DNA of 64,000 nucleotides from a virus (taxonomy: Duplodnaviria > Caudoviricetes), in IMG/VR virus record IMGVR_UViG_3300012665_000674, positions 1 through 64,000 of that record. One strand, 5' to 3'. Below, one piece after another: positions 1 through 57,919 of the stretch. A program made the translations under genes and the position numbers. The first letter of the stretch is position 1. Each line of letters starts with the position of its first letter. Under the pieces are notes generated by a model, which had not been told where the DNA came from, searched no databases, and worked only from the letters and a program-made list of their open reading frames with translations.

Positions 1-1130
1 ACACCTTGCTCCACGACACCTTTAATCTCAAAGTGATTAACTGGATTACCGTTAATCATATAGTGACCATTCTTGTAATCAGTTATTACGCCTACCCCTC
101 TACCACCATCTTTCCAATCAGGTTGATGCGGACTTGTTTCATACTTGACTCTTTGGCCGACTTTATACTTCGGCTGTTCTGGAGCAGCACCCATTACTTT
201 GTTGGCAATTTTATTCATAATGCCTTCGTTAGTGCCTGTTGCCATTCTATCGTGGTCATCACGTTTGCGTAGTTCACTCTTAGCCATCTTGCCCTGCATC
301 TTGGCAACTTTGCTATGGAATGGTCCAGTCGTTTTGTCTGCGGTTGATTTAACAAACTCGTCACTTGCTCCACTCATTTGATTCTTAATATCTCTTGGCG
401 TGCGTGTATCGCCCATACCAAAGCGTGATTTTTCTACGGGCTTGTTTCCAGCCTCCGCCACACCTTGCTTTGCCATTCTTCTGACAACTTCGATGGCTCG
501 GTCTTTTGCGCCATATGGCATACCACGAGTAGCGTGATAAGTGTTATTATGCTCACCATTTACGAATGTAAGGTAATCACCCTGGTATTCTTTTACTTCC
601 CATTGATTACCGTCTGGTGCTTTAGCTCTATAAACAGTTTTCATTTCTGATTCATCTGGCAAGTAGCCTTCCGCCACACCTTTATTTTGAGGTGGGTTAA
701 CTGGAACAGTCTTATATACACGCTTAACAGGATCATAAACAGTTTTGCGAGGACCTTCTTTTGCTAATTGTCCTACACGCTTAACCATGTTTTGATAATC
801 ATCGCCGTAGTCTACTTCTTTACTTTCGTCAACATTGTAGTTTTCTAATTTTTTCAATATTTGACGAATCATTATACTCACATCACTAGTGCCTAATTCT
901 TCTGCACCAGCATGAAAGTCAGCTACATCCATTACTATATCACCTACTACTTCATGTCCATAACGTGTAACGATATCAGGATAGCGCATTTCTAAGCGAT
1001 TATAAAGTATGTCAGCTAAATCACTAGCACTAATGCCATTTTGACTTTCTTTCAATGCCACTGGTTTACTTGTACTGTATTTACGTTCAGGAGTAGCTTC
1101 GTTTAATATGCCTGTTAAAATATTACTCAT
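1..1130 (-). CDS. Modular putative head-internal polyprotein with GVAE repeats (3' end runs off the window; absent from the ORF track)
   Basis: Manual translation from ATG at 1130: MSNILTGILNEATPERK...ALKES...NVDES...NKGVAEG...KQGVAEA...GTNEG...KGVVEQGV; open to the window edge. Confidence 0.8.
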   Translation of the reverse strand, partial: MSNILTGILNEATPERKYSTSKPVALKESQNGISASDLADILYNRLEMRYPDIVTRYGHEVVGDIVMDVADFHAGAEELGTSDVSIMIRQILKKLENYNVDESKEVDYGDDYQNMVKRVGQLAKEGPRKTVYDPVKRVYKTVPVNPPQNKGVAEGYLPDESEMKTVYRAKAPDGNQWEVKEYQGDYLTFVNGEHNNTYHATRGMPYGAKDRAIEVVRRMAKQGVAEAGNKPVEKSRFGMGDTRTPRDIKNQMSGASDEFVKSTADKTTGPFHSKVAKMQGKMAKSELRKRDDHDRMATGTNEGIMNKIANKVMGAAPEQPKYKVGQRVKYETSPHQPDWKDGGRGVGVITDYKNGHYMINGNPVNHFEIKGVVEQG

Positions 1131-1554
1131 ATTATTATTTTTTCTTATTCTTGTTATCTAACATACCGCGCTTGTTAGCTGTAGCCCATGCAATGTTCTC
1201 TGCTTCTTTATCTGAGTGACCAAGTTTCTTTTCGCTAGACTTGACATGTTTTACCATTCTATCAACTTTTGTGCCTTCAGCCACACCTTTTTGCAAGAAA
1301 GATGGGATAGGTCTATCACCACCTAGTCTTTTAACTGATGTTGGAGTGATAGTAGGATCAACTCTTGTGGCGTATGTTTTACGTGTGCTGTCTGCGCGAC
1401 CGCGAACAGTTGGGTGACCGTCAGCACTCTTGGTAACATTTGGTACTTCGGCTTGACTCACTGTTCTTTTTGCTAGACTGTTGCTAGTGTCGGCGTACTT
1501 TTGTGTACTATGGTCACGTTGATGTTGCATTGACAATTCTTCCGCCACACCTTG
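1..1554 (-). repeat. Dispersed in-frame repeat (C/A)AAGGTGTGGC(G/T)GA(A/G) encoding (Q/K)GVAE
   Basis: Copies at 453-467, 669-683, 1276-1290 and 1540-1554, plus a truncated copy at 1-8; core AAGGTGTGGC identical in the four full copies. Confidence 0.9.
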
Positions 1555-2019
1555 AAGTTGTTTTCCCTCTAGATATTCACGGATAGTGTTTAGATAGTCA
1601 TTGGCTTTAATAATCTTTTCTTGAACCCAACCTTCAAGGCCTTCTTCTTCACTAACATCTTTAATCATATGATAAACTGTTTTGGCGTTCTTTGCCGCAC
1701 TAAACAAATCACTACGTGCCATTTCAACTTCATGGTCTAAACGACTTTGACCATGTTTAATTAAACCGGTTTTACTAGTACGGCCTTGACCAGGAACAAT
1801 GATTAAGTCTTGTTCAGAAATTTCTTCTTCATTTACTTTGCTTTCTGAAATGCTATTACCATAAGAACCTTTCTTTTTGACTTTACCCTTCATTAAGTAT
1901 TGAACTGGTTTTAGTCCAGGAACACTAACACTTTCTCGGGCTTGAGCCATCATAGGCATTGCTACGGATGAGACTGATCCGGCTGTGGTTGTAGATTCTG
2001 ATATTTCTGTAAAACGCAT
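1135..2019 (-). CDS. Putative head-internal polyprotein with two GVAE sites
   Basis: N-terminus MRFTEISES resembles a capsid-targeting sequence; internal ISE/VNE/GVAE motifs; GATAAATA upstream. Confidence 0.65.
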   Translation of the reverse strand: MRFTEISESTTTAGSVSSVAMPMMAQARESVSVPGLKPVQYLMKGKVKKKGSYGNSISESKVNEEEISEQDLIIVPGQGRTSKTGLIKHGQSRLDHEVEMARSDLFSAAKNAKTVYHMIKDVSEEEGLEGWVQEKIIKANDYLNTIREYLEGKQLQGVAEELSMQHQRDHSTQKYADTSNSLAKRTVSQAEVPNVTKSADGHPTVRGRADSTRKTYATRVDPTITPTSVKRLGGDRPIPSFLQKGVAEGTKVDRMVKHVKSSEKKLGHSDKEAENIAWATANKRGMLDNKNKKK

Positions 2020-2074: not shown

Positions 2075-4171
2075 TCAGATTTTGCCGTTTGCTTTTGCTG
2101 TTGGGGGAATTCCGGCTCTACTAGTGAGCCATCCGAATGCTTTTGCATTCTTTTTGATTGAATCAGGATGAACATCTACTGTCAATGCAGTCTTAAAACG
2201 TGGGTCGTTTTTCTCTTTTTCACTGGGAATATAACCACTTGCTTCTGACATTGATCCACGATATTGAATATCTTTACGGCCACCATATGGATTTATTGCT
2301 GGTGTTTTTTCGGCAGCAAATTGCAATGTTTCATCCTCTGCTACTTTTTTGTTTACATTAGATAATTCATATATAACTAAATCGCCATTGTCTGCCCTGA
2401 ATGCTCTATAGCCCCATGCTTTGCTGTAACGCTGTACCAATCTATCGTATAACTTAGCACGACTTTCAGGGTTTTGACCCTGTTCCACTTCTTTCCTTGC
2501 TGAAAATGTCAATCTTACAGGCTTGTACTTTTTAACATACTGTTGAATCGCAGTCAATACTGTAGCAAAGACACGCATTGCGTCACCCTCGCCCGTTACT
2601 TCTTGACTGTTGTTTCTATAAAATTCAACTTGCACGACTTCTTCACCTTCGTCATCTTGTTGATTGTTGAACATGATACTTAGTGGGCTACCATCTGGTA
2701 ATTTAGCTAATGCATCAACATCACCGTACTCACTCTTTTCCCACGTTAAGGGATATGGTTGGTCAAAGCCTTCATTAACATTATATGTAGGATCAACCTT
2801 CTGACGCTTCATGCCCTTAGGTTGATTAGGGTCCACTGGATCAATATCAGTTGTTGTCAACCCAGTCTTTTCTAAATCGTTGATGTATTGGTGTTCTAAA
2901 TCTTCATCACCAAATGCCATGATAGTACTCGGAGGTCCTTTGCCAAAGTCATGTTTACCCAACCCTTTAAGATTACTGATATGTTGACCTAACTTGTACC
3001 AGTCATAAACATCACTTACATCTACTTTAACAGTACCTGCCGGCATAGTCGGTTTGAATTCAGGGCCAGGTGGTTTACCGTTTGGATCATAATCTTCATC
3101 GATAGTAGACAATACTTTTATTCTATTAGGCGGTACCAATGAAGTGATAGCAATTTCAAATTCCGCATTTGGTGTATATTCACCGGTTAGGTTTCTAGTA
3201 TCAATCTCTATTATTGCTAGTTCTTCATCTTCATCGAATTCATCACCTAGCCAGTTCATCATAGCATCTTCTAGTGACGCTTTGTCCGGAAAGCAATATA
3301 TAGCTGACTGTTCACCTTGAATTTTACTTGAACGTGCACCAACTTGAGGACGTAAACCTGCCTTCATGATGCTATCTAAGTTACTAGTAGGAGTAACGTG
3401 ATAAACTTTTTCCGGTAGTTTGTTTTTTTCTTCTTGTATCTTAGTTGGATCTTGATACATTGTTTCGATAGTTAATAATTCACTGTGTAACTTATCTTTT
3501 AAATCATATAGTTTTGTAATGTAACCTTGACTACGCAATGCTTTGTATGCTAAATTTTCAGGACCAAACTCACCACCATTATCTAATCCTGCTTGTCTAT
3601 ATCTTCTAATTGTTTTAATTATATTTTGAACTTTACTATATTTTTTGGTCTTAAGTGCTATCTCTATAAGATTTAATAATTTTTCATATTTTGCTTTAGT
3701 GGCGGTTTGGTCAAAATTTGCTCTACGCTTAGTTGGGATTCTAAGCCATTTATCATTAAGGATACTGTACTCACCTAGACTTACTACTGGTTCTCTGGCG
3801 TCTTGTACATATAACTCTACGGGCACCCCATGTATTTTTATATCGTGGCTATCATTGTATAATGATTTTTTTGCATTGAATAGTTCTTTATATATTTCAT
3901 CATTGGGCATTTTACTCATATCAACTAATATGTGTAAATCTAAGTCTGAGTGAGGGGTATAACTATATGCGGCATTACTACCTGAAACAGTTAAGTCTTC
4001 TACATCTATTCCCTGTATGCCTAATTCTTCTAAAAAATCTCTTGCTATTAATTTAAGTTGTAATTTAACTTCCGGACGCAAGTTATTATTATTCCATAAC
4101 TTTGGATTAAGGTCATCATGGAAGGTGACTGCATCAGAAAGACGAAAGGAATCAAGTTCTTTTAAATTCAT
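2075..4171 (-). CDS. Multi-module polyprotein: Pol-beta-type nucleotidyltransferase, ADP-ribosyltransferase-like domain and further modules
   Basis: GSNAAYSYTPHSDLDLH (GS...DxD) motif; YHVT...SIMKAGLRP...IYCF...EFE...VPP ART-like motifs; start moved to MNLKELD at 4171 because the longer ORF overlaps a terminator and the upstream gene. Confidence 0.7.
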   Translation of the reverse strand: MNLKELDSFRLSDAVTFHDDLNPKLWNNNNLRPEVKLQLKLIARDFLEELGIQGIDVEDLTVSGSNAAYSYTPHSDLDLHILVDMSKMPNDEIYKELFNAKKSLYNDSHDIKIHGVPVELYVQDAREPVVSLGEYSILNDKWLRIPTKRRANFDQTATKAKYEKLLNLIEIALKTKKYSKVQNIIKTIRRYRQAGLDNGGEFGPENLAYKALRSQGYITKLYDLKDKLHSELLTIETMYQDPTKIQEEKNKLPEKVYHVTPTSNLDSIMKAGLRPQVGARSSKIQGEQSAIYCFPDKASLEDAMMNWLGDEFDEDEELAIIEIDTRNLTGEYTPNAEFEIAITSLVPPNRIKVLSTIDEDYDPNGKPPGPEFKPTMPAGTVKVDVSDVYDWYKLGQHISNLKGLGKHDFGKGPPSTIMAFGDEDLEHQYINDLEKTGLTTTDIDPVDPNQPKGMKRQKVDPTYNVNEGFDQPYPLTWEKSEYGDVDALAKLPDGSPLSIMFNNQQDDEGEEVVQVEFYRNNSQEVTGEGDAMRVFATVLTAIQQYVKKYKPVRLTFSARKEVEQGQNPESRAKLYDRLVQRYSKAWGYRAFRADNGDLVIYELSNVNKKVAEDETLQFAAEKTPAINPYGGRKDIQYRGSMSEASGYIPSEKEKNDPRFKTALTVDVHPDSIKKNAKAFGWLTSRAGIPPTAKANGKI

Positions 4172-4175
4172 ATAG

Positions 4176-4183
4176 TATTTATC
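4176..4183 (-). promoter_or_regulatory. Late promoter GATAAATA, 4 nt upstream of ATG
   Basis: GATAAATACTATATG on the minus strand. Confidence 0.7.
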
Positions 4184-4184
4184 A

Positions 4185-4208
4185 AACAAAAGCCCCTTTC
4201 GGGGCTTT
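4185..4208 (-). terminator. Intrinsic terminator
   Basis: AAAGCCCC-GAAA-GGGGCTTTTGTTT directly after the stop of 4212..5117. Confidence 0.8.
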
Positions 4209-4211
4209 ATT

Positions 4212-5117
4212 TTACTGAACTGATATAGACTTAACTTCGTTACCGTCTTTATCAATTAGCTTTAATCCAGCTAACTGTTGTTGCTGTTCTAAGAACATAG
4301 GTCCAATTGTTTTCATCAAGTGATCTTGATTTTCTTGACAGAAAACATATGAACCTGAGTGACGTAATAATACACGTTTGTCAACCCAGATACGGCCGCC
4401 CATGTCACGCCAGTTTTCACAGAATGTCCAGTCTTCACTGTAGTAACGATTTTGACGAACTGCGGTATCAAAGTATGTTTTCAAATGTACATCATACTTT
4501 GGATCTAATCCAATGTCGTTCTTGTACTGCTTAACTGCAGGATGAGTTTTCATCTTTTCAAATACATGTTTCTTCATTAACAAGAATCCTGTACCTGCTT
4601 TACTTACTTCTTGTAAGCCGTCTGCGCCTTCTTCTGCACCTTCAAATCCGTTAACTACCCACTTGATTGGCATAGTCTTCATTGGGTACAATCCGCCGAT
4701 AACGTCAACGTCACGGTTCAACAATACTAACAAGTGCCATGGTTCCCAACCAATGTCTGCGTCAACAAAGAACAAGTGTGTTGCGTCTGGCATGTCCAAG
4801 AACTTTGCAGTCAATGTATTACGGGCACGACTGATTAGTGACTCGTTAACCATTGTTTCTAATGTCCAATCAATGCCAAGCTGACGGGCAGTGTTTGCCC
4901 ACTTGATAAATGACATGAATGTACTTTCAGTTAACATACCACCGTAACATGGCATAGCAATGTGTACACGGGTAGTTTTTAGAAAGTCTACGTTAACTTG
5001 AACTTGACCCTGTTGCGGGGCTTGTTGTTGCTCTTGTGCCGCTTGTTCGGCAATTTCCTGCACAGCTTCTACTGGTACAGTTTTTTCTTCAGTTTGTTTG
5101 GTTTTCTTAGTTGCCAT
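4212..5117 (-). CDS. GT-A fold glycosyltransferase-like protein
   Basis: IAMPCYGG, SLISRARN, FFVDADI (DxD), GTGFLL, SEDWTFC and a distal His. Confidence 0.7.
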   Translation of the reverse strand: MATKKTKQTEEKTVPVEAVQEIAEQAAQEQQQAPQQGQVQVNVDFLKTTRVHIAMPCYGGMLTESTFMSFIKWANTARQLGIDWTLETMVNESLISRARNTLTAKFLDMPDATHLFFVDADIGWEPWHLLVLLNRDVDVIGGLYPMKTMPIKWVVNGFEGAEEGADGLQEVSKAGTGFLLMKKHVFEKMKTHPAVKQYKNDIGLDPKYDVHLKTYFDTAVRQNRYYSEDWTFCENWRDMGGRIWVDKRVLLRHSGSYVFCQENQDHLMKTIGPMFLEQQQQLAGLKLIDKDGNEVKSISVQ

Positions 5118-5167: not shown

Positions 5168-8100
5168 TTATTTTTCTTCTATATAATCAGCACTTTCGGT
5201 TACCTTCTCTTGTTCATATGTTCCTGGGAAGGGTAAACCTAAAGAGCCACCGGTTTCTTTTTCAGTTATTGCGGCAATACCAGTTCCTATGCCTGCACTA
5301 GCCAATGTATACTTTACAGTATCACTCCAGCTTTTACCATTGATACGTGAAACAACAGTAGGAATAACAGTGTTTAATATTGCTTGTAGTGCTAGGTTAG
5401 TTTGTGAAGGACTTAGGCCCATTCGTTGTGCTGTAGTTAATACACCACCTGCTAATAATGCACCAATAGTAGTAACTATGCCACCCTGTATATATGGATT
5501 TTCTTTACCTTTTTTAAAGATATCAATTAACTTGCTACGAACTTTAGGATCATCTGTTTTTTGTAATAGGTCACGTGCTTGGTCAACGTAGTTATCTACT
5601 TTTTCTTTATGAATATTATTGACTACAGGTTTGTAAAAACTTATAACTGTGTCAGTTATTGGATCAACTTTTTTATCTTCTGCATAATTTACGCTTTCAC
5701 CACCTCCACCGCCGTCGCCACCACCTTCACCGGATTCTCCACCACCATAATAGGCATAGCCCGGGAAGAAATAACCTCTCAGTGATCTTGAAGATTTTTT
5801 CTTTTTCTTTTTCTTGCCTTCATCTAACTTAACTTTGGCTCTCACTAAAGATTCGTAAATCTTAGCTTTCTGTTCAGGAGTAGCGTGTGGCAACAATACT
5901 TTAACTCTCTCAATATATTCTTTAATAGCTTGTTGTTGCTGGATGCCCATGTTCTTTGCTGTTACATCCATAAGGTGTTCTACCCAATCTGAGCCTAAAG
6001 TGTTAGTATCAAAAGCATTATACCATGTTTTAAGTTTATCTTGTTCGCTTGCGTTAGGGTTTGACAATACATTTCTAAGTTGTGTGAAACTGATACCAGT
6101 TCCACCTTTGTTTGGATCACGTTCTGTTCTAACTGTTTCAAAGTCTACTTGATTCTGTGTACCACCGTACTTAGCAATAGATGCTGGATCTTTCATACGC
6201 TTTTCTAAACTATCCATCCAGTTTTTCATACCTTCATAACGGTCATCACCTACTAATAAGATGACTTTGTTATATGGACTATTCGCTGGAAGAACAAGTT
6301 CTTTCTCAATCTTCTTCATTGGAGTACCTTGAGGATTCCAAACTTGAATGTTGTTTGCATACTTAGGATACAATTTACGCAGTGTTCTTACTTTATCACC
6401 GGGCGGGATAGGATCGTCTGTTGGATTAGTTACAGGACTAACATAGATATAAGGATCACCACCTACACTTTTAGCAGTATCAATTGTTTGTTGAATTAAT
6501 TGTTGATGACCTTTATGTCCAACGAATGATCCAATGGTTACAACAGCAGGCTTAACACGGTTGCTACCTTCTGTTGGTTTTTTGTTCATTGCTTGTTTTG
6601 CAGCCATCTTGTTTTGCATATCAGGGCTAGTAACTTTAGCAAGTGTACCACTAGGCATATTGATAACAAGACCTTCAATCATATCACCCAATTGATCTTT
6701 GCCTGCAATAGGACTACTAATAATAGCATTGCTCAATGCTTGTCGTGCTTTACTTAATATAAGTTTTGCTTTTTGTTTGTCAGGAGTGTCTCCGCGTTGT
6801 GCAACTGCACTAGTAAGTGCTTCAGCATTCTTAACAATTGGATTAACAATTTTACTAACATCAATACCCTTATGTGATAGAGTATTGTTTATCATTTTAA
6901 TATTAGGTGTACTATCTTTGATTAACGCTTGCTTAATCTTTTGACTGTCAGGTCTTGTTTCACCTGTGCTATATTGCTTAACACTTATTGGAACAAGAGT
7001 CATTGACTTTCCTAATTTCTTAGGATCATAAGGAATGTTTACGAATTTATAGCCACCGTCTTCTTGTTGTGCCATTGGATTGAATAACATCTCTGCTTGC
7101 ACAATTGTATCAGATGGAATATCTTTCATAAAATCAGCATTAACAATTGTAGCTAATGCTTTATCGTAATTCTGTGTACGTGCTAACTGTTCTTCTGACT
7201 GACCCTGACTTCTTCCATAGATTTCAAAATCACCAATATTATCTGCTGTCATAGGCTTGTCAACACGACTGGTCATGAAGAATGGCTCACCTTCAGGTGT
7301 TTTACCAAATCTTATACCAGCACCATCAACTTTCAAGTTGATTGGAACACCTTGAAACTTGCCACCGTCTTGTGCAATTTCTTTTGCAAAGTTAATGAAG
7401 TCTACATCCTTCATCTCAGTACTTGATCCGGGATTGTATATGTGTTGAATACCTTTGCGTTTATAACTTGGAGCAGCCTCATCAAGTGTGTTCTTTGCCA
7501 TTTGTTTGACAATATTTTTTCTTGTTTCAACACCTTCATCTGTGCCAGTCATCTTATATGATTTGCGATATGTATCAAGCATTTGATCCAAATTAGCTGG
7601 CTTCTCTATCTTCAACGTATTCAACATCGTGTTGATAGCAGTAGTCTTTTCTGCAATATCTTTATCAGGATTGTTTTTGTACATTCCTTGAGCACCAGGA
7701 CCAATAGTCTTTTGCAAGAATCCGTTCAACACTTGTTGTTTTTCTTCTGGACTCATCAACGTATTCATAACATTCAATAAGCCAGTGAACGACCAAAATT
7801 GTTTTTGTAATGCTTGTGCTTGTTTAGGATTTAAACGTTGTCCCAAAATTGTTGAAAAAATCTGTCCAATGTTTTGTTGATATCCTGCAGTGGGTGCCTC
7901 ACGCATTACAGGCAATCCGTTGATTACTAATGGCTTACCATTATCATTTAAAACTGGTTCATACTTTGCACGTAACCCGCCGCCTTCTTTACTAGACACG
8001 GCAAAACTATACATGTTATCTGTTGTTGGTTCGTCAACTTCTTGACGTAGTTTTCCGCGACCTTTCATTTTACGCAATAAGAAATCCTTGCGTGTTAATG

Positions 8101-8701
8101 CTGTAAATGCTTGAATCAACCACTTGTGGAATACACCCTTAACACCTGCTTGCAAATCTTCCCATGAACTACTATGACTGAATTTAGCCCAATCAGTTGG
8201 CAAATCATTTTCAAACTCTACAAATTCAAAATCTATTTGTACCTTTACCGGTGGGTCTTGTAATTCAAACAGTCCAGAGAACTGTTCATTACCACGTTGA
8301 AAACCTAAAAACTTAGCAGGACCAATTTGTTTGTTTGTGTATGCAGTTAAGAATTGTTGTAAATCAGGTTCTTTTGTTTTGTCAACCATTGTATCAATGT
8401 CACCAACTGTTGGTTTCTTCTCTACAAAAGTTTCATCAGGAATACCCTTGACATTAAAGAAGTGTAAACTACTTCCACTTAAGAACTCACCACTTGCTAA
8501 TACTTTTGGATTCCATAATGGTTGCTTATACATCTTAGCATAAGCCTGATTGATTGCATTTAGTAGCTCATTTAATTTAGGAACCATGTAGTTACGATTT
8601 GTAACCTTTAGGTCTAAGTGTTGTGCTTCCTGTGATCCTATGGATAGGTTGCCGCCTTCAAGTAGGCATTTACGGCTTTCAAGTATTGCGGCTATTTTCA
8701 T
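5168..8701 (-). CDS. 1177-aa polyprotein: Pol-beta-like NTase, KxDG ligase-like domain, HxGH cytidylyltransferase-family domain and C-terminal modules
   Basis: SGSS...VGDIDT; LKVDGAG...QAEMLF...EGLV...AKV; TIGSFVGHKGH...VGDDR...ISFTQLR; modules split by ILE/LLE/LDE/IKE/ITE/VTE motifs. Confidence 0.7.
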   Translation of the reverse strand: MKIAAILESRKCLLEGGNLSIGSQEAQHLDLKVTNRNYMVPKLNELLNAINQAYAKMYKQPLWNPKVLASGEFLSGSSLHFFNVKGIPDETFVEKKPTVGDIDTMVDKTKEPDLQQFLTAYTNKQIGPAKFLGFQRGNEQFSGLFELQDPPVKVQIDFEFVEFENDLPTDWAKFSHSSSWEDLQAGVKGVFHKWLIQAFTALTRKDFLLRKMKGRGKLRQEVDEPTTDNMYSFAVSSKEGGGLRAKYEPVLNDNGKPLVINGLPVMREAPTAGYQQNIGQIFSTILGQRLNPKQAQALQKQFWSFTGLLNVMNTLMSPEEKQQVLNGFLQKTIGPGAQGMYKNNPDKDIAEKTTAINTMLNTLKIEKPANLDQMLDTYRKSYKMTGTDEGVETRKNIVKQMAKNTLDEAAPSYKRKGIQHIYNPGSSTEMKDVDFINFAKEIAQDGGKFQGVPINLKVDGAGIRFGKTPEGEPFFMTSRVDKPMTADNIGDFEIYGRSQGQSEEQLARTQNYDKALATIVNADFMKDIPSDTIVQAEMLFNPMAQQEDGGYKFVNIPYDPKKLGKSMTLVPISVKQYSTGETRPDSQKIKQALIKDSTPNIKMINNTLSHKGIDVSKIVNPIVKNAEALTSAVAQRGDTPDKQKAKLILSKARQALSNAIISSPIAGKDQLGDMIEGLVINMPSGTLAKVTSPDMQNKMAAKQAMNKKPTEGSNRVKPAVVTIGSFVGHKGHQQLIQQTIDTAKSVGGDPYIYVSPVTNPTDDPIPPGDKVRTLRKLYPKYANNIQVWNPQGTPMKKIEKELVLPANSPYNKVILLVGDDRYEGMKNWMDSLEKRMKDPASIAKYGGTQNQVDFETVRTERDPNKGGTGISFTQLRNVLSNPNASEQDKLKTWYNAFDTNTLGSDWVEHLMDVTAKNMGIQQQQAIKEYIERVKVLLPHATPEQKAKIYESLVRAKVKLDEGKKKKKKKSSRSLRGYFFPGYAYYGGGESGEGGGDGGGGGESVNYAEDKKVDPITDTVISFYKPVVNNIHKEKVDNYVDQARDLLQKTDDPKVRSKLIDIFKKGKENPYIQGGIVTTIGALLAGGVLTTAQRMGLSPSQTNLALQAILNTVIPTVVSRINGKSWSDTVKYTLASAGIGTGIAAITEKETGGSLGLPFPGTYEQEKVTESADYIEEK

Positions 8702-9232: not shown

Positions 9233-9264
9233 GAAAAATACTCCATTATAGAGTATTTATCATT

Positions 9265-9990
9265 CTAAACAAGTTCTGGACGCTTTTCTAATTTATATCG
9301 TTTTCCAAGATGTTCCCCGTGCATTAATGCTAGATAACTCAATGTGCTTTCATTATCATAGTCAATAAAATGACTTGAACTAGAATATCTATACCGCCAA
9401 CTACTAGCAGCATTATTATAGCCTTTTAACCATATTTTTAATGAATTACTTGGATGCAGGGATTTTGTTCTACCGAACAACTCTGTTAAATCTTTGCAAA
9501 AGTTTTGTGGTATAACTTTTGATTTTAAATAAATTCTGTAGGGATATTTAGGTTCATTTACAAAATGCTTTACTCCCGCAAACTGTGATTTTTGAACCTC
9601 AGTATAATCATATGCTAGATTAGCATCAATGGTTTCAATTGTTTTTAACAAAGATAAATCATTGCAAAAAATAGAAACTGTGTCACGTTCAATTCGAATG
9701 GTTGCAGACTTTTCTTTACGTCTGAGATTTCTCCATTCAATATATGCTTTTATAGATTCTAGATTTTTAGTAACATCAGGTTTATCTTTTTTATTAATTA
9801 CTTGCCAACCAGTAGTTGCAGTATACCGAGTCATGAAGTCTGCTACAGATTTTGCATACCACGTATAACGCACACCGGGTAAACGAAACCGTACCCTGTA
9901 TGCGTATTTGTTGTAATAATCATCATCACGGTAATCGTAAAAATCAATTCCCGGAACGTTGTCAACTGACTTCAATAATCCCATTTTCAT
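9265..9990 (-). CDS. Hypothetical protein
   Basis: 241-aa ORF overlapping the end of clpA. Confidence 0.6.
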   Translation of the reverse strand: MKMGLLKSVDNVPGIDFYDYRDDDYYNKYAYRVRFRLPGVRYTWYAKSVADFMTRYTATTGWQVINKKDKPDVTKNLESIKAYIEWRNLRRKEKSATIRIERDTVSIFCNDLSLLKTIETIDANLAYDYTEVQKSQFAGVKHFVNEPKYPYRIYLKSKVIPQNFCKDLTELFGRTKSLHPSNSLKIWLKGYNNAASSWRYRYSSSSHFIDYDNESTLSYLALMHGEHLGKRYKLEKRPELV

Positions 9991-12226
9991 TTACCTTAGC
10001 TGTGAGTTTTTGTGCAACCGTAAAATCAACTTTATCTTCATTCATAATAACAGTAATTGTACTATTTTTGATTCGCTCAAACAATACTTTTTTACTTAAC
10101 GGTACCCTAATTAATTCATCAATCTTGCGTGATAGTGGACGTGCGCCCATCTTTTTATCATATCCTTGCTCAGCCAAATAATTGATAACGGGTTCAGTAA
10201 GTGTAAGACTAATATTATGTTTTTCAATGAGGCTCTTTTTCAAGTCATCAGTAAACTTAATTACAATCTTCTTAATAGCAAGTGTGTCAAGTTTATTGAA
10301 TTTGCAAATCAAATCAACACGGTTTCTAAACTCAGGTTTAAAGAATTCTTTCAATGCTTTATCATCTTCACCTTGTTTTTCTTGTGCTCCAAAGCCAATG
10401 TTATTACGTTCTCCGTCAGCACTACCCAAGTTACTAGTCATAATGATAATAGCATTTTTACAGTTAACTTTTTTACCGTTACTTCCTGTAATCTGACCTT
10501 CATCTAACATCTGCAAAAAGATATTAAAGATATCAGGGTGTGCTTTTTCAACTTCGTCAAACAACATGATAGCATGTGGGTTCTTACTTAAGTCGCTAAT
10601 CAAACGACCACCGCCAACTTGACTATCACCGAAGCCAACATAACCAGGGGGAGGGCCGATCAAACTTGATACTGAGTGCTTCTCACCGTATTCACTCATA
10701 TCATATTTGAGCAATGGCATGTCAAGGTTCTTACTTAACAACTTAGCCAATTCTGTTTTACCTGTACCTGTTGGTCCTAAGAACAAGAAACTACCTGTTG
10801 GTTTAGTGTCATTGCCGATACCAGCAAAGTTAACATAGATACGTTCCAATACTTGCTGAACAGTTTCATCCTGTCCATACAACTTACCTTTGATGTTAAT
10901 TTCAAGATTATTGATGAGGTCAAAGTTATCACCTTTCATCTTGTCTGCCGGCACACCTGTGAACTTCTCAACTTGGTCAAACACAAGTTCTTTAGTAATC
11001 AATGCACCCTTATTGCCTGCAACACGTTGTTTAGCACAAGCCGCATCAAGCAAGTCAATACTCTTGTCGGGATTCTTGCGGTCATGAATATAGCGTCCTG
11101 ATGATTCTACTGCGGCTTTAATTGCATCCTCAGTAATCTCAACACTATGGAAGTCATTCAACCGTGTACTAAGTCCTGAAAGAATTCTAATAGTTGAATC
11201 AGGAGAGGGCTCATCAATTGCTACACGATAGAACCTACGCATCAAGGCACGATCCTTCTCAAAACTTTCGTAGTACTCTTCCCATGTAGTACTTGCAATA
11301 ACCTTTAGTGTACCTTTAGTGATAGCAGGCTTAATCATGTTAGCAAAGTCAACACTACCATTGTTTGCTGAACCTGCACCCTGCATGGTATGTGCTTCGT
11401 CAATGAAAAGAATTGCTTTCTTTTTAGTATTCAATGCATCCAATACCGCTTTTACTTTTTCCTCAAAGTCACCTCGATATTTACTTCCTGCAAGTAGTGA
11501 GCCTACTTCCAAACTATAGACAGCGTGATCCTTAAGGAACTCGGGTCCATCACCATTTTGAATTAAGCTAGCAAGACCTTCTGCAATAGCAGTTTTACCA
11601 ACACCCGGATCACCAACCATCAATACGTTTGCTTTAAATCGTTTAGCTAGTACGTTGACAATATCATCAAGTTCTTTGCTACGACCAATCAATGGTTCAA
11701 GTTTACCTTGTTCAGCAAGTTGTGACAAGTTGATAGTGTATTCTTCTAATATTTCGTCGGCTTGATTTTCACTAAGATGTGAAGTATGCTCACCACCTTT
11801 ATAATGTTTCTGCCAGTATGCAACAAATTCATTTTTATTAATGCCGTATTTTAGTAGAAAGTAATGTGCATGGCTATTACCTTCTGCGGCAATACTTAGA
11901 TATAAATCAATCGTAGTTACTTGTCTACGACCGGTGAACAATACTTGTGTGACACTACGATTAATGACACGTTCTAGGCTATTTGTTTTGCGTGGCACTA
12001 CTTCATCAGTTGCAGAAATAATAGCGTGTAAGCTATCTAAGTATGCAGTGATTTCTTGTTCCATTGTATCAATGTCTGCACCAAAACCACCCACACATTT
12101 TTTAAATGGGGGATATGTAATTAATGCAAGTAATAGATGTTCAACAGTAACGTACTGTTGTTTTCTAGTTTTAGCAGATTCAATCGCTTGTTCAATGATG
12201 CTTTCGATTTCTGGTGAGTTTATCAT
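9962..12226 (-). CDS. clpA: ClpA-type AAA+ unfoldase (Clp protease ATPase subunit)
   Basis: Clp N-domain (EHLLLAL); two Walker A motifs (GDPGVGKT, GPTGTGKT); FIDEAH and FDEVEKAH; GPPPGYVG; ClpP-docking IGF loop; no ClpB middle domain. Confidence 0.9.
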   Translation of the reverse strand: MINSPEIESIIEQAIESAKTRKQQYVTVEHLLLALITYPPFKKCVGGFGADIDTMEQEITAYLDSLHAIISATDEVVPRKTNSLERVINRSVTQVLFTGRRQVTTIDLYLSIAAEGNSHAHYFLLKYGINKNEFVAYWQKHYKGGEHTSHLSENQADEILEEYTINLSQLAEQGKLEPLIGRSKELDDIVNVLAKRFKANVLMVGDPGVGKTAIAEGLASLIQNGDGPEFLKDHAVYSLEVGSLLAGSKYRGDFEEKVKAVLDALNTKKKAILFIDEAHTMQGAGSANNGSVDFANMIKPAITKGTLKVIASTTWEEYYESFEKDRALMRRFYRVAIDEPSPDSTIRILSGLSTRLNDFHSVEITEDAIKAAVESSGRYIHDRKNPDKSIDLLDAACAKQRVAGNKGALITKELVFDQVEKFTGVPADKMKGDNFDLINNLEINIKGKLYGQDETVQQVLERIYVNFAGIGNDTKPTGSFLFLGPTGTGKTELAKLLSKNLDMPLLKYDMSEYGEKHSVSSLIGPPPGYVGFGDSQVGGGRLISDLSKNPHAIMLFDEVEKAHPDIFNIFLQMLDEGQITGSNGKKVNCKNAIIIMTSNLGSADGERNNIGFGAQEKQGEDDKALKEFFKPEFRNRVDLICKFNKLDTLAIKKIVIKFTDDLKKSLIEKHNISLTLTEPVINYLAEQGYDKKMGARPLSRKIDELIRVPLSKKVLFERIKNSTITVIMNEDKVDFTVAQKLTAKVNENGIIEVS

Positions 12227-32081: not shown

Positions 32082-32107
32082 TTCTTAATTCCTGTATATA
32101 TTATTTA

Positions 32108-32590
32108 TCATTTTTCATTAGTTTTGCCTGCTAGTATTTTTAACAATTCGTTTCTGTCAAGTTCTCTACCTTCACCCAGAGGAGTGTTTTCAATTTCTTC
32201 AGTTTTACTAGCAACTTTTTGATCTAGTGTTGCTTTCTTTAATTGCAACTCAATCATTTTTAATTTCTTGTTTAATTTGGCTGTTTTAGCTGTGATAGCA
32301 TGACCTAGCATACTACTAGCACTATTGAAAATCTCACTAGCAAAACGACTGTCAACCTGCATTCCTAGATCCATCAAGTCTTTATAACTTGATGTTGCTA
32401 AACTTGCTAATTCATCCATTTCTCCGTCTGCGGCTTCTAATCCACGTACTTGAGGTAATGCTTCTTCAATCTTTGTTAAGTTATCTAATGCAGTTGTAGT
32501 GACTAAATTTGCATTTTCAGGGATAGGTCTAGATAAACTATCAATATCGTTTTGCGGCAATTCAAATAATTCTTCTAATTTTTTGGTCAT
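32108..32590 (-). CDS. Helical hypothetical protein (possible small terminase)
   Basis: 160-aa coiled-coil ORF next to the head-completion gene; the function is a guess. Confidence 0.45.
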   Translation of the reverse strand: MTKKLEELFELPQNDIDSLSRPIPENANLVTTTALDNLTKIEEALPQVRGLEAADGEMDELASLATSSYKDLMDLGMQVDSRFASEIFNSASSMLGHAITAKTAKLNKKLKMIELQLKKATLDQKVASKTEEIENTPLGEGRELDRNELLKILAGKTNEK

Positions 32591-40864: not shown

Positions 40865-40905
40865 GTTGTTACCTAATAATTGTATTTATCAGGTAACGCT
40901 ATGTA

Positions 40906-57863: not shown

Positions 57864-57919
57864 ATGAGTATCCTAATAGTATTTATCAAAATTGGGTTTA
57901 ATTATATTTTAAGATATCT

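Follow-up and report, generated by a model that had tools for sequence, protein, structure and literature searches.

Two adjacent genes at the end of an uncultured phage genome fragment, open reading frames (ORFs) A and B, repeat one five-codon word at the borders of protein segments that are otherwise unrelated. What holds the letters of so short a coding sequence constant, and what might the word be for? We address these questions for the window, a stretch of 64,000 nucleotides that forms the first 64 kb of the 72,598-base IMG/VR virus record IMGVR_UViG_3300012665_000674 (rated 21% complete), and for related phage loci. The word is constrained at the level of its DNA and modules have been exchanged at it, as a preliminary description of the window had proposed; on balance we favour the explanation that it is both a cut site for a phage protease and a crossover point for recombination.

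The junction word and its codons

On the coding strand the word reads (C/A)AA GGT GTG GC(G/T) GA(A/G), and four in-frame copies lie on the minus strand of the window, across two adjacent genes (Table 1). Their coordinates and frame are as given in the preliminary description, which wrote the motif in coding orientation; its spacings of 72 and 88 codons are also right, and only the distance to the truncated copy at the contig edge needs correction, from about 153 codons to about 148. The intervening segments, which it called unrelated, fall in different families. Counted against a shuffled null, the 15-mer with up to two mismatches gives 5 matches where 1.27 are expected, a number reached in 0 of 100 shuffles. 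The exact 12-mer is found four times, on one strand, in the whole 72,598-base record, and a reversed control pattern is not found at all; nor does GVAE occur elsewhere in any of the six frames of the record (0.37 expected from amino-acid composition). The two central codons are indeed uncommon in this genome, GTG accounting for 9.3% of valine and GCG for 5.5% of alanine codons in the contig. Given this usage, the probability of GTG in four copies out of four is 7.6e-5 and that of GCG in at least three of four is 6.5e-4. The KVAE of the neighbouring gene, near position 2340, had been contrasted with the word as being written in ordinary codons, and it is (Table 1).

For ORF B, 165 relatives were confirmed in IMG/VR, many of them matching residues 1-153 to 1-160 only, and 80 loci were retained; ORF A has only three related loci. 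GVAE is present in 52 of the 83 related loci and lies without exception in long ORFs in the direction of the genes, with 11 copies in one ORF of 1089 codons. In these contigs the consensus extends to 18 bases, CAA GGT GTG GCG GAA GGC, and lies at the junctions of unrelated modules of 40-460 residues. Among 108 distinct GVAE instances the favoured codons are CAA (70), GGT (101), GTG (86), GCG (91) and GAA (95), and a following glycine is GGC in 50 of about 65 cases, against codon backgrounds of 10% for GTG, 7% for GCG and 20% for GGC. Conservation is confined to about -5 to +14 nucleotides (some 18 in all), with no signal in the flanks. An 11-mer core has 75 distinct copies in 973 kb, every one of them in frame on the sense strand. 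The same picture emerged from an independent sample, obtained by scanning IMG/VR with the bare 15-mer (at least 120 stretches, of which 80 loci were analysed): 103 of 110 copies were in frame as QGVAE, and 102 of these lay in ORFs of at least 100 residues.

Three controls bear on whether the peptide alone could account for these codons. Outside GVAE, VA dipeptides are encoded by GTG GCG in only 17 of 940 cases, 13 of which are themselves xVAE variants, and codon-pair bias was accordingly rejected as the cause. In the leader peptide of the same genes, MS(N/S)ILKG(L/I), synonymous sites vary freely across 35 distinct instances (serine AGC 19 and AGT 16; leucine CTA 11, CTT 11 and TTA 7). Finally, in pairs of copies whose homologous flanks share less than 75% nucleotide identity, four-fold sites agree at 0.24 in the flanks and at 0.70 in the word, and where neither flank of a pair is related the word still agrees at 0.755. 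Third-position identity within the word is 0.70-0.84 at every flank divergence, compared with about 0.36 expected from codon usage, so that the synonymous sites of GVAE are not free among relatives. Because of these dipeptide, leader and flank-identity controls, we conclude that the constraint acts on the letters and not on the peptide alone.

Module exchange at the word

We cut 59 distinct ORFs with GVAE behind every copy and obtained 173 modules, those of at least 25 residues falling into 121 families; internal modules have a median length of 86 residues (range 37-463). The same families recur beside different neighbours. The N-terminal module of ORF B is followed by some ten different families, and about nine precede a DUF5872-like module. 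Module 2 of ORF A had one match in a near-length search (P0001), in an ORF B-type protein of another phage.

In the window, module gain, loss and replacement coincide with the repeat to the nucleotide, as the preliminary description had anticipated. One related locus (L005) is 92% identical to the window over 1539-2100, 93% over 1090-1290 and 89% over 667-1055, with no match in the gaps; it carries an unrelated segment of 170 nucleotides in place of the 88-codon cassette of ORF B, and its homology ends fall at words, at 667 (copy 669-683) and at 1539 (copy 1540-1554). Conversely, the cassette at 1276-1539 is found together with both flanking words in an unrelated 735-residue ORF of another locus (L027), 97.2% identical and over 1267-1554 only. 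A third locus (L086) is 86.7% identical over 267-469 only, its homology starting at the word copy at 453-467. Some cassettes have moved very recently, at 97-98% identity. A comparison with Logan contigs (shares of 0.28 or less) added an independent metagenome contig in which 1290 and 1539 are joined with 170 other letters between them and in which homology stops at 667; what the Logan contigs show is replacement between strains only.

To place these cases on a general footing we counted as true breakpoints those match ends where identity within the match was at least 85% and the adjoining sequence was unrelated. The 379 breakpoints include 84 (22%) at the word, against 2.2% at random, and 52 (14%) within 15 nucleotides of it, against 3.4%; in total 36% are within 15 nucleotides of a word where 5.6% would be at random, and looser counts agree. 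Breakpoints within 3 nucleotides of the 12-base motif occur at ten times the random frequency. GVAE is the commonest junction and not the sole one. Of the remaining ends, many coincide with variant V-x-E motifs (330 of 870, where random windows give 6%) or with further recurrent junctions. Words are also in excess near the ends of other contigs, with 6 of 34 lying within 100 nucleotides of an end where 1.0 is expected, and the contig of the window itself ends in a word, which hints at strain heterogeneity at these points.

Two further junction types were seen. In many relatives (L011, L019, L021, L037-L040, L053-L063 and others) the motif (E/Q)M(T/S)GGVIAGGxGE(G/S) replaces Q-G-V-x-E. The leader MS(N/S)ILKGL, for its part, is found as the C-terminal tail of upstream polyproteins (...NESAIMKGLK-stop, ...KSNILKGLMG-stop; for example at the ORF ends of L005, L020, L029, L046 and L048) and also internally (...KKNESSILEGIEQ...). 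This suggests gene fusion and fission at a second, leader-type junction which, unlike GVAE, is not codon-fixed.

The junction as a peptide and the weighing of explanations

The proteins themselves give little away by homology. Scans of ORF A and ORF B against Pfam and PHROGs gave no match above the cut-off, and Pfam scans of the two together with nine related polyproteins gave no peptidase, with DUF5872, zinc ribbons, Lar and ASCH below the cut-off. ORF B has relatives in 1571 protein clusters of a large protein collection at E <= 1e-5, none of them with a functional name, and 2 of its best 120 protein relatives carry a DUF name from a source. Matches in the ESM Atlas are viral hypothetical clusters only, and cultured phages offer only three weak matches to ORF B, cyanophage hypothetical proteins of less than 60% identity over about 20% of its length.

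At the orthologous junction 3' of the conserved ORF B module the peptide is Q-G-V-x-E, where x is Ala, Ser, Asp, Asn, Thr or Val, and QSVAE and QGMAE are also found. In the best 120 protein relatives of ORF B, 112 of 118 have x-(V/I/L/M)-x-E at the junction, followed by 18 different downstream families. The invariant features are a hydrophobic residue at P3 and Glu at P1, P2 being free. T4 gp21 is described as cutting after L/I-X-E (PMC9026906), and a T4 gp21-type protease (PF03420, Peptidase_S77) was found in both near-complete relatives, G001 (348.7 kb, complete) and G002 (335 kb), at 97-98 bits. In G001 the protease gene belongs to a T4-type head module that also encodes a portal (347 bits) and a Gp23 capsid protein (329 bits), and in the capsid protein the stretch that precedes the Gp23 match ends ...L-L-A-E.

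A site of the same kind closes the leaders of the genes in question. Nearly all polyprotein genes begin MS(N/S)ILKG(L/I)xxE and ORF B-type genes M(K/R)IxQIxE, both ending in (L/I)-x-E; ORF B itself begins MRFTEISE followed by S, and so ends its leader in I-x-E. Within residues 3-13, (L/I/V/M)-x-E is present in 4 of 5 genes of the first 9 kb, compared with 12 of 66 elsewhere. As a match of pattern, the leaders resemble T4 capsid-targeting sequences, ten residues of which are reported to suffice for loading internal or foreign proteins into the T4 head (PMC9026906, PMC3012670). We also compared the N-terminus of ORF B after I-S-E (STTTAGSVSSVAMPMM, 1996-2019, minus strand) with residues 45-85 of the G001 capsid protein after L-A-E (SSAGTTTAGNIATLNRVILPV); the two are alike by eye, and the likeness was set aside as not significant (BLASTP E = 0.22).

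From the V-x-E junctions, the protease of the relatives and the leaders we infer that the strings are head cargo that is cut into small proteins. The protease alone would not call for the word, however: at the orthologous junction the word codons are used in 5 of 6 cases where P2 is Ala, whereas with any other residue at P2 ordinary valine codons are used (GTA 5, GTT 4, GTG 3), and therefore the peptide function by itself does not require the word.

The explanation that we favour accordingly gives the junction two uses. ORF A and ORF B would be two of many late-expressed genes of uncultured T4-like jumbo myoviruses, each encoding a string of small unrelated modules joined by the peptide (Q/E/K)-G-V-A-E-(G/E/A/D). 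As a peptide, the junction would be a site for the gp21-type prohead protease of the phage, which would cut after Glu in hydrophobic-x-Glu, and the short leaders (MSNILKGLxxE, MRFTEISE), ending in the same kind of site, would act as capsid-targeting sequences. The string would thus enter the prohead, be cut into separate small proteins and be injected with the DNA in the manner of T4 internal proteins. As DNA, the codon-fixed, GC-rich CAA GGT GTG GCG GAA GGC, which would seldom arise by chance at a genomic G+C content of 37%, would offer a patch of identity between otherwise unrelated sequences, at which the homologous recombination or copy-choice machinery of the phage could cross over, so that cassettes would be gained, lost or replaced in frame and each would retain its cut site. 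Words close to the consensus would stay in the exchange pool, and drifted junctions (GTA GCA, or another P2) would remain cleavable while leaving the pool. Cleavage, packaging and injection are in this account predicted from sequence, and recombination is the presumed cause of the codon fixation.

As to the machinery, both near-complete relatives encode a UvsX-like recombinase, and no tyrosine (PF00589) or serine (PF00239) recombinase was found in any of four records, two of them 95-100% complete; as controls, PF00589 was matched in 14 of 14 genomes and PF00239 in 12 of 14. General recombination or copy-choice is for these reasons likelier than a dedicated enzyme. The term integron-like, used in the preliminary description, holds as an analogy of outcome and fails as a mechanism, given the missing recombinases and a word that is not palindromic.

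Several observations weigh against this explanation. P3 is mostly Val, where the T4 consensus has Leu or Ile, and PF03420 has no match in the record of the window itself, which is only 21% complete. Single-sequence AlphaFold2 models have a mean predicted local distance difference test (pLDDT) score of 50.4 for ORF A and of 43.5 for a 1081-residue polyprotein with 11 words (L038), with only isolated modules reaching about 70-85; both models are too poor to place the word in exposed linkers. GVAE is absent from 31 of the 83 related loci, and the complete 348.7 kb relative has two GVAE only, one of them in the ordinary codons GGC GTA GCA GAA, although the latter also fits the picture of junctions drifting out of the pool. 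Most breakpoints (239 of 379, or 63%) are more than 60 nucleotides from any GVAE, and only 3 of 177 islands of high identity are bracketed by words, while 41 have a word at one end and 133 at neither. About 18 nucleotides of identity is short for T4-type recombination, which is a weak point of the proposal; PMC2839356 mentions patches of less than 50 bp. Second-order selection for exchangeability is, moreover, an indirect argument for codon fixation.

Among the alternatives, we think it unlikely that the proteins are neither cut nor packaged, acting instead as intact multi-module cytoplasmic proteins in which GVAE is a structural linker between domains. Cleavage is deduced from the genes, most modules belong to no known family, and polyvalent proteins of other phages are described as capable of being delivered uncut (PMC5512222), all of which would suit such proteins. 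A mere linker would, however, hardly be expected to hold invariant exactly the residues that a Glu-specific prohead protease needs, behind leaders that resemble capsid-targeting sequences and in phages whose relatives encode the protease. The sharing of one module between ORF A-type and ORF B-type genes is likewise what would be expected of independent units.

We give a similarly small chance to the view that the junction is a peptide feature only, whether cut site or flexible linker, whose codons are uniform through recent common descent, cassettes having spread lately together with their linkers and with no role for the DNA word, and whose breakpoints reflect those fusions at domain borders that are viable. 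Decay from one ancestor would leave single-base derivatives, and the amino-acid variants do resemble them: GLAE is GGT TTG GCG GAA in 5 of 10 instances and DVAE is GAT GTG GCG GAA in 6 of 9. The very recent transfers noted above also suit common descent, and selection for in-frame, folded products would filter breakpoints in any case. Against this view, the third positions of the word hold their identity where homologous flanks are saturated, and also between copies related on neither side; codon fixation of this kind is missing from the leader peptide, and the breakpoints crowd within 3 nucleotides of the 12-base motif, not just somewhere in linkers.

Slightly less probable still is an action of the word on RNA or translation, as a pause (through rare codons or a Shine-Dalgarno-like AGGUG) that would give the preceding module time to fold, or as a signal for a co-translational break, with recombination as a side effect; we consider explanations of this kind weaker than one based on recombination. 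They draw support from the strict confinement of the word to the sense strand and the reading frame, from its two successive rare codons, and from the AGGTG that it contains, which we take to be Shine-Dalgarno-like. GTC and GCC are equally rare, yet each is used once in the 108 GVAE instances, and selection is therefore for letters and not for rarity. The ordinary valine codons found where P2 is not Ala speak against such an action as well. Methionine is not enriched after the word, and there is thus no sign of internal starts. No tRNA for GTG or GCG was found in the window, and the complete relative, among 24 tRNAs, has only Val(UAC) and Ala(UGC) for these two amino acids. Separately, a G-quadruplex formed by four GG runs was considered and rejected: it would be two-layered and marginal (-1.4 kcal/mol), and codon fixation is independent of the fourth run, GTG and GCG being used in 33 and 35 of 42 copies without it and in 58 and 61 of 71 with it.

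A dedicated enzyme, either a site-specific recombinase or a sequence-specific nuclease that recognises the word and moves cassettes as in integrons or homing, is very unlikely, for although the site is short, sharply bounded, asymmetric, always in one orientation and exact in its junctions, and although homing endonucleases are common in T4-type phages, the two recombinase families went unmatched in all four records, the word lacks inverted repeats and is never found reversed, and no conserved enzyme gene was seen beside the polyprotein genes. One homing candidate exists in G001, where the ORF directly after the major capsid gene (about 101583-102599, L100), which begins MKHFIYKTIHPNGKYYIGRHS..., looks by eye like a GIY-YIG homing endonuclease.

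The reading of the word as cut site and crossover point leads to a broader idea, which we put forward only tentatively and with less confidence than the reading itself: that these phages possess an integrase-free "integron for injected proteins", a pool shared across lineages in which one 18-nucleotide word would serve as both cut site and crossover, and from which anti-defence cargo would be assembled, cut apart and injected.

The surrounding locus and known systems

The features of the locus are collected in Table 1.

Table 1. Coordinates of genes, modules, word copies and the promoter-like word in the window.
Feature	Position	Strand	Remarks
ORF B	1135-2019	minus	294 residues
ORF B N-terminal module	1540-2019	minus	residues 1-160; conserved
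ORF B exchangeable cassette	1276-1539	minus	residues 161-248; 88 residues; family F12
ORF B C-terminal module	1138-1275	minus	residues 249-294; 46 residues
ORF A	3-1130	minus	376 residues; cut by contig end; starts 4 nucleotides past ORF B stop
ORF A leader	1098-1130	minus	MSNILTGILNE, followed by A
ORF A module 1	669-1130	minus	residues 1-154
ORF A module 2	453-668	minus	residues 155-226
ORF A further stretch	3-452	minus	residues 227-376
Word copy CAAGGTGTGGCGGAA (Q-G-V-A-E)	1540-1554	minus	end of conserved ORF B N-terminal module
Word copy AAAGGTGTGGCTGAA (K-G-V-A-E)	1276-1290	minus	3' border of ORF B cassette
Word copy AAAGGTGTGGCGGAA (K-G-V-A-E)	669-683	minus	ends ORF A module 1
Word copy CAAGGTGTGGCGGAG (Q-G-V-A-E)	453-467	minus	ends ORF A module 2
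Degenerate copy AAAGGTGTCGTGGAG (K-G-V-V-E)	9-23	minus	still V-x-E; absent from the preliminary description
Truncated word copy CAAGGTGT (Q-G-V...)	1-8	minus	assembled contig ends inside it
K-V-A-E as AAA GTA GCA GAG	2336-2347	minus	in 726-residue neighbour gene; V-x-E, not the word
Promoter-like word TGATAAATACTAT	2039-2051	minus	19 nucleotides 5' of ORF B start

At 21% completeness the 72,598 bases of the record imply a genome of some 350 kb; the G+C content is 34-39%. Among the products of the window are a tail sheath and a tail tube, a T4 gp15-like sheath stabiliser, and helicase and ATPase proteins that are DnaB-like and ClpB-like respectively. We therefore take the window to be one end of a fragment from a T4-like jumbo myovirus.

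Exact copies of the promoter-like word lie at 2039-2051, 4172-4184 and 57876-57888, all on the minus strand, and copies with one or two mismatches at 9250-9262, 32098-32110 and 40879-40891, among others, also on the minus strand. They stand 15-19 nucleotides upstream of start codons, including those of ORF B and of tail-region genes, and number 14 against 5.8 expected, a count reached in 0 of 100 shuffles. The word probably represents a promoter class, with a core that presumably resembles the T4 late promoter. Among the 12-18-mers that recur across the related loci, the intergenic GCCCCGAAAGGGGCTTTT ranks second (about 26 distinct contexts); with its GC stem, GAAA loop and T run it resembles an intrinsic terminator.

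Upstream of ORF B, a 726-residue ORF (2075-4255, minus strand) is listed with a TTG start, and an ATG at 4171 (MNLKELDSF...) is its probable true start; its relatives begin MDLKELHSF, and TGATAAATACTAT spans the codons FDKYY just 5' of that ATG. The protein has weak nucleotidyltransferase and Tpt1/KptA-like matches and a strong match to a PHROG family without a function. Beyond it, a 1177-residue cytidylyltransferase-like protein (5168-8701, minus strand) has the C-terminus ...ESADYIEEK. The tail ES-x-DY(L/I)(E/D/S)EK is common to unrelated neighbouring proteins of relatives (ORF ends of L010, L017, L018, L038, L045 and L078), making it a conserved C-terminal tag. Near the putative cargo genes there is also a ClpB/ClpA-like double AAA+ ATPase (9962-12226, minus strand; PHROG "ATP-dependent protease", 767 bits). 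In G001 the 24 tRNA genes form one cluster (L104 13529-19533, L105 197-2935, L096 18319-18707), and this genome carries in addition a transfer-messenger RNA with the tag ANDSQFALAA.

These loci bear on how phages renew their injected anti-defence proteins. The T-even internal proteins are described as diverse anti-restriction cargo with only the targeting sequence in common (PMC3012670, PMC9026906, PMC12373910), and their diversity is spread over separate genes. In the uncultured giant phages considered here, hundreds of small uncharacterised modules are set off from one another by a DNA word that can be searched for, and these modules have demonstrably moved between genes and phages at the word. 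Splitting ORFs at the word delimits these modules and provides a handle for cataloguing candidate injected effectors from metagenomes. The word is also a testable case of one sequence selected at two levels, peptide and DNA, and may serve as a natural guide to the design of cargo fusions for T4-like capsids that stay in frame and release themselves.

The nearest parallel for the proteins is provided by the T4 internal proteins (IPI-III and Alt, processed by gp21), which they resemble in having short leaders at the N-terminus that close with (L/I)-x-E, in the T4-type, Glu-specific protease that related genomes encode, and in being small, highly diverse, non-conserved and cargo-like. The likeness is one of leader and protease pattern, not of sequence homology, and on our side is known from genes alone. 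In T4 each internal protein has its own gene, whereas here many modules share one frame with internal sites between them, and the internal site is codon-fixed. Polyvalent proteins (Iyer et al. 2017, PMC5512222) similarly carry many unrelated domains in one polypeptide, and the proposal made for them is that they travel with the DNA and are set free by proteolysis to act in conflict with the host. Their release is ascribed to embedded zincin-like peptidase domains, of which there was none in the nine polyproteins that we scanned; their signature domains were likewise undetected in our Pfam scans, and the available portion of PMC5512222 describes no conserved DNA-level junction.

For the exchange, the closest counterpart is the PeSL shuffling of T4-type phages (Arbiol et al. 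2010, PMC2839356), together with the linkers of the modular theory. In both that system and ours a repeated conserved DNA element flanks variable cassettes in hyperplastic regions, and gain, loss and replacement take place at the element; general phage recombination is proposed as the driver, and the authors themselves draw the comparison with integrons. As presented there, PeSLs are intergenic elements of about 100 bp that combine a promoter with a stem-loop, whereas the word is some 18 nucleotides long, codes for peptide and preserves the reading frame; mini-circles have been demonstrated for PeSLs, whereas exchange at the word is known from sequence comparison. The glycine-rich motifs of the T-even gp38 adhesin (Tetart 1998, cited in PMC3157838) are, like the word, short conserved coding motifs that part hypervariable segments and allow in-frame swaps. 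They are described as the structural core of a single domain whose segments are loops (PMC3157838), unlike the whole unrelated modules and the rare-codon, cut-site-like motif found here. Integron cassette arrays, finally, also consist of units that can be exchanged, with a repeated site, in a single orientation, at the border of each; unlike them, the present system has no IntI-type recombinase (PF00589 in none of the four records) and no attC-like palindrome, and its cassettes are parts of one reading frame where those of integrons are promoterless genes. Among the matches listed from the open-access literature (main texts) we found no description of the GVAE junction or of its shuffling. What sets the present case apart is an in-frame, codon-fixed, protease-site-like junction between whole unrelated modules, which combines features that these known systems possess separately.

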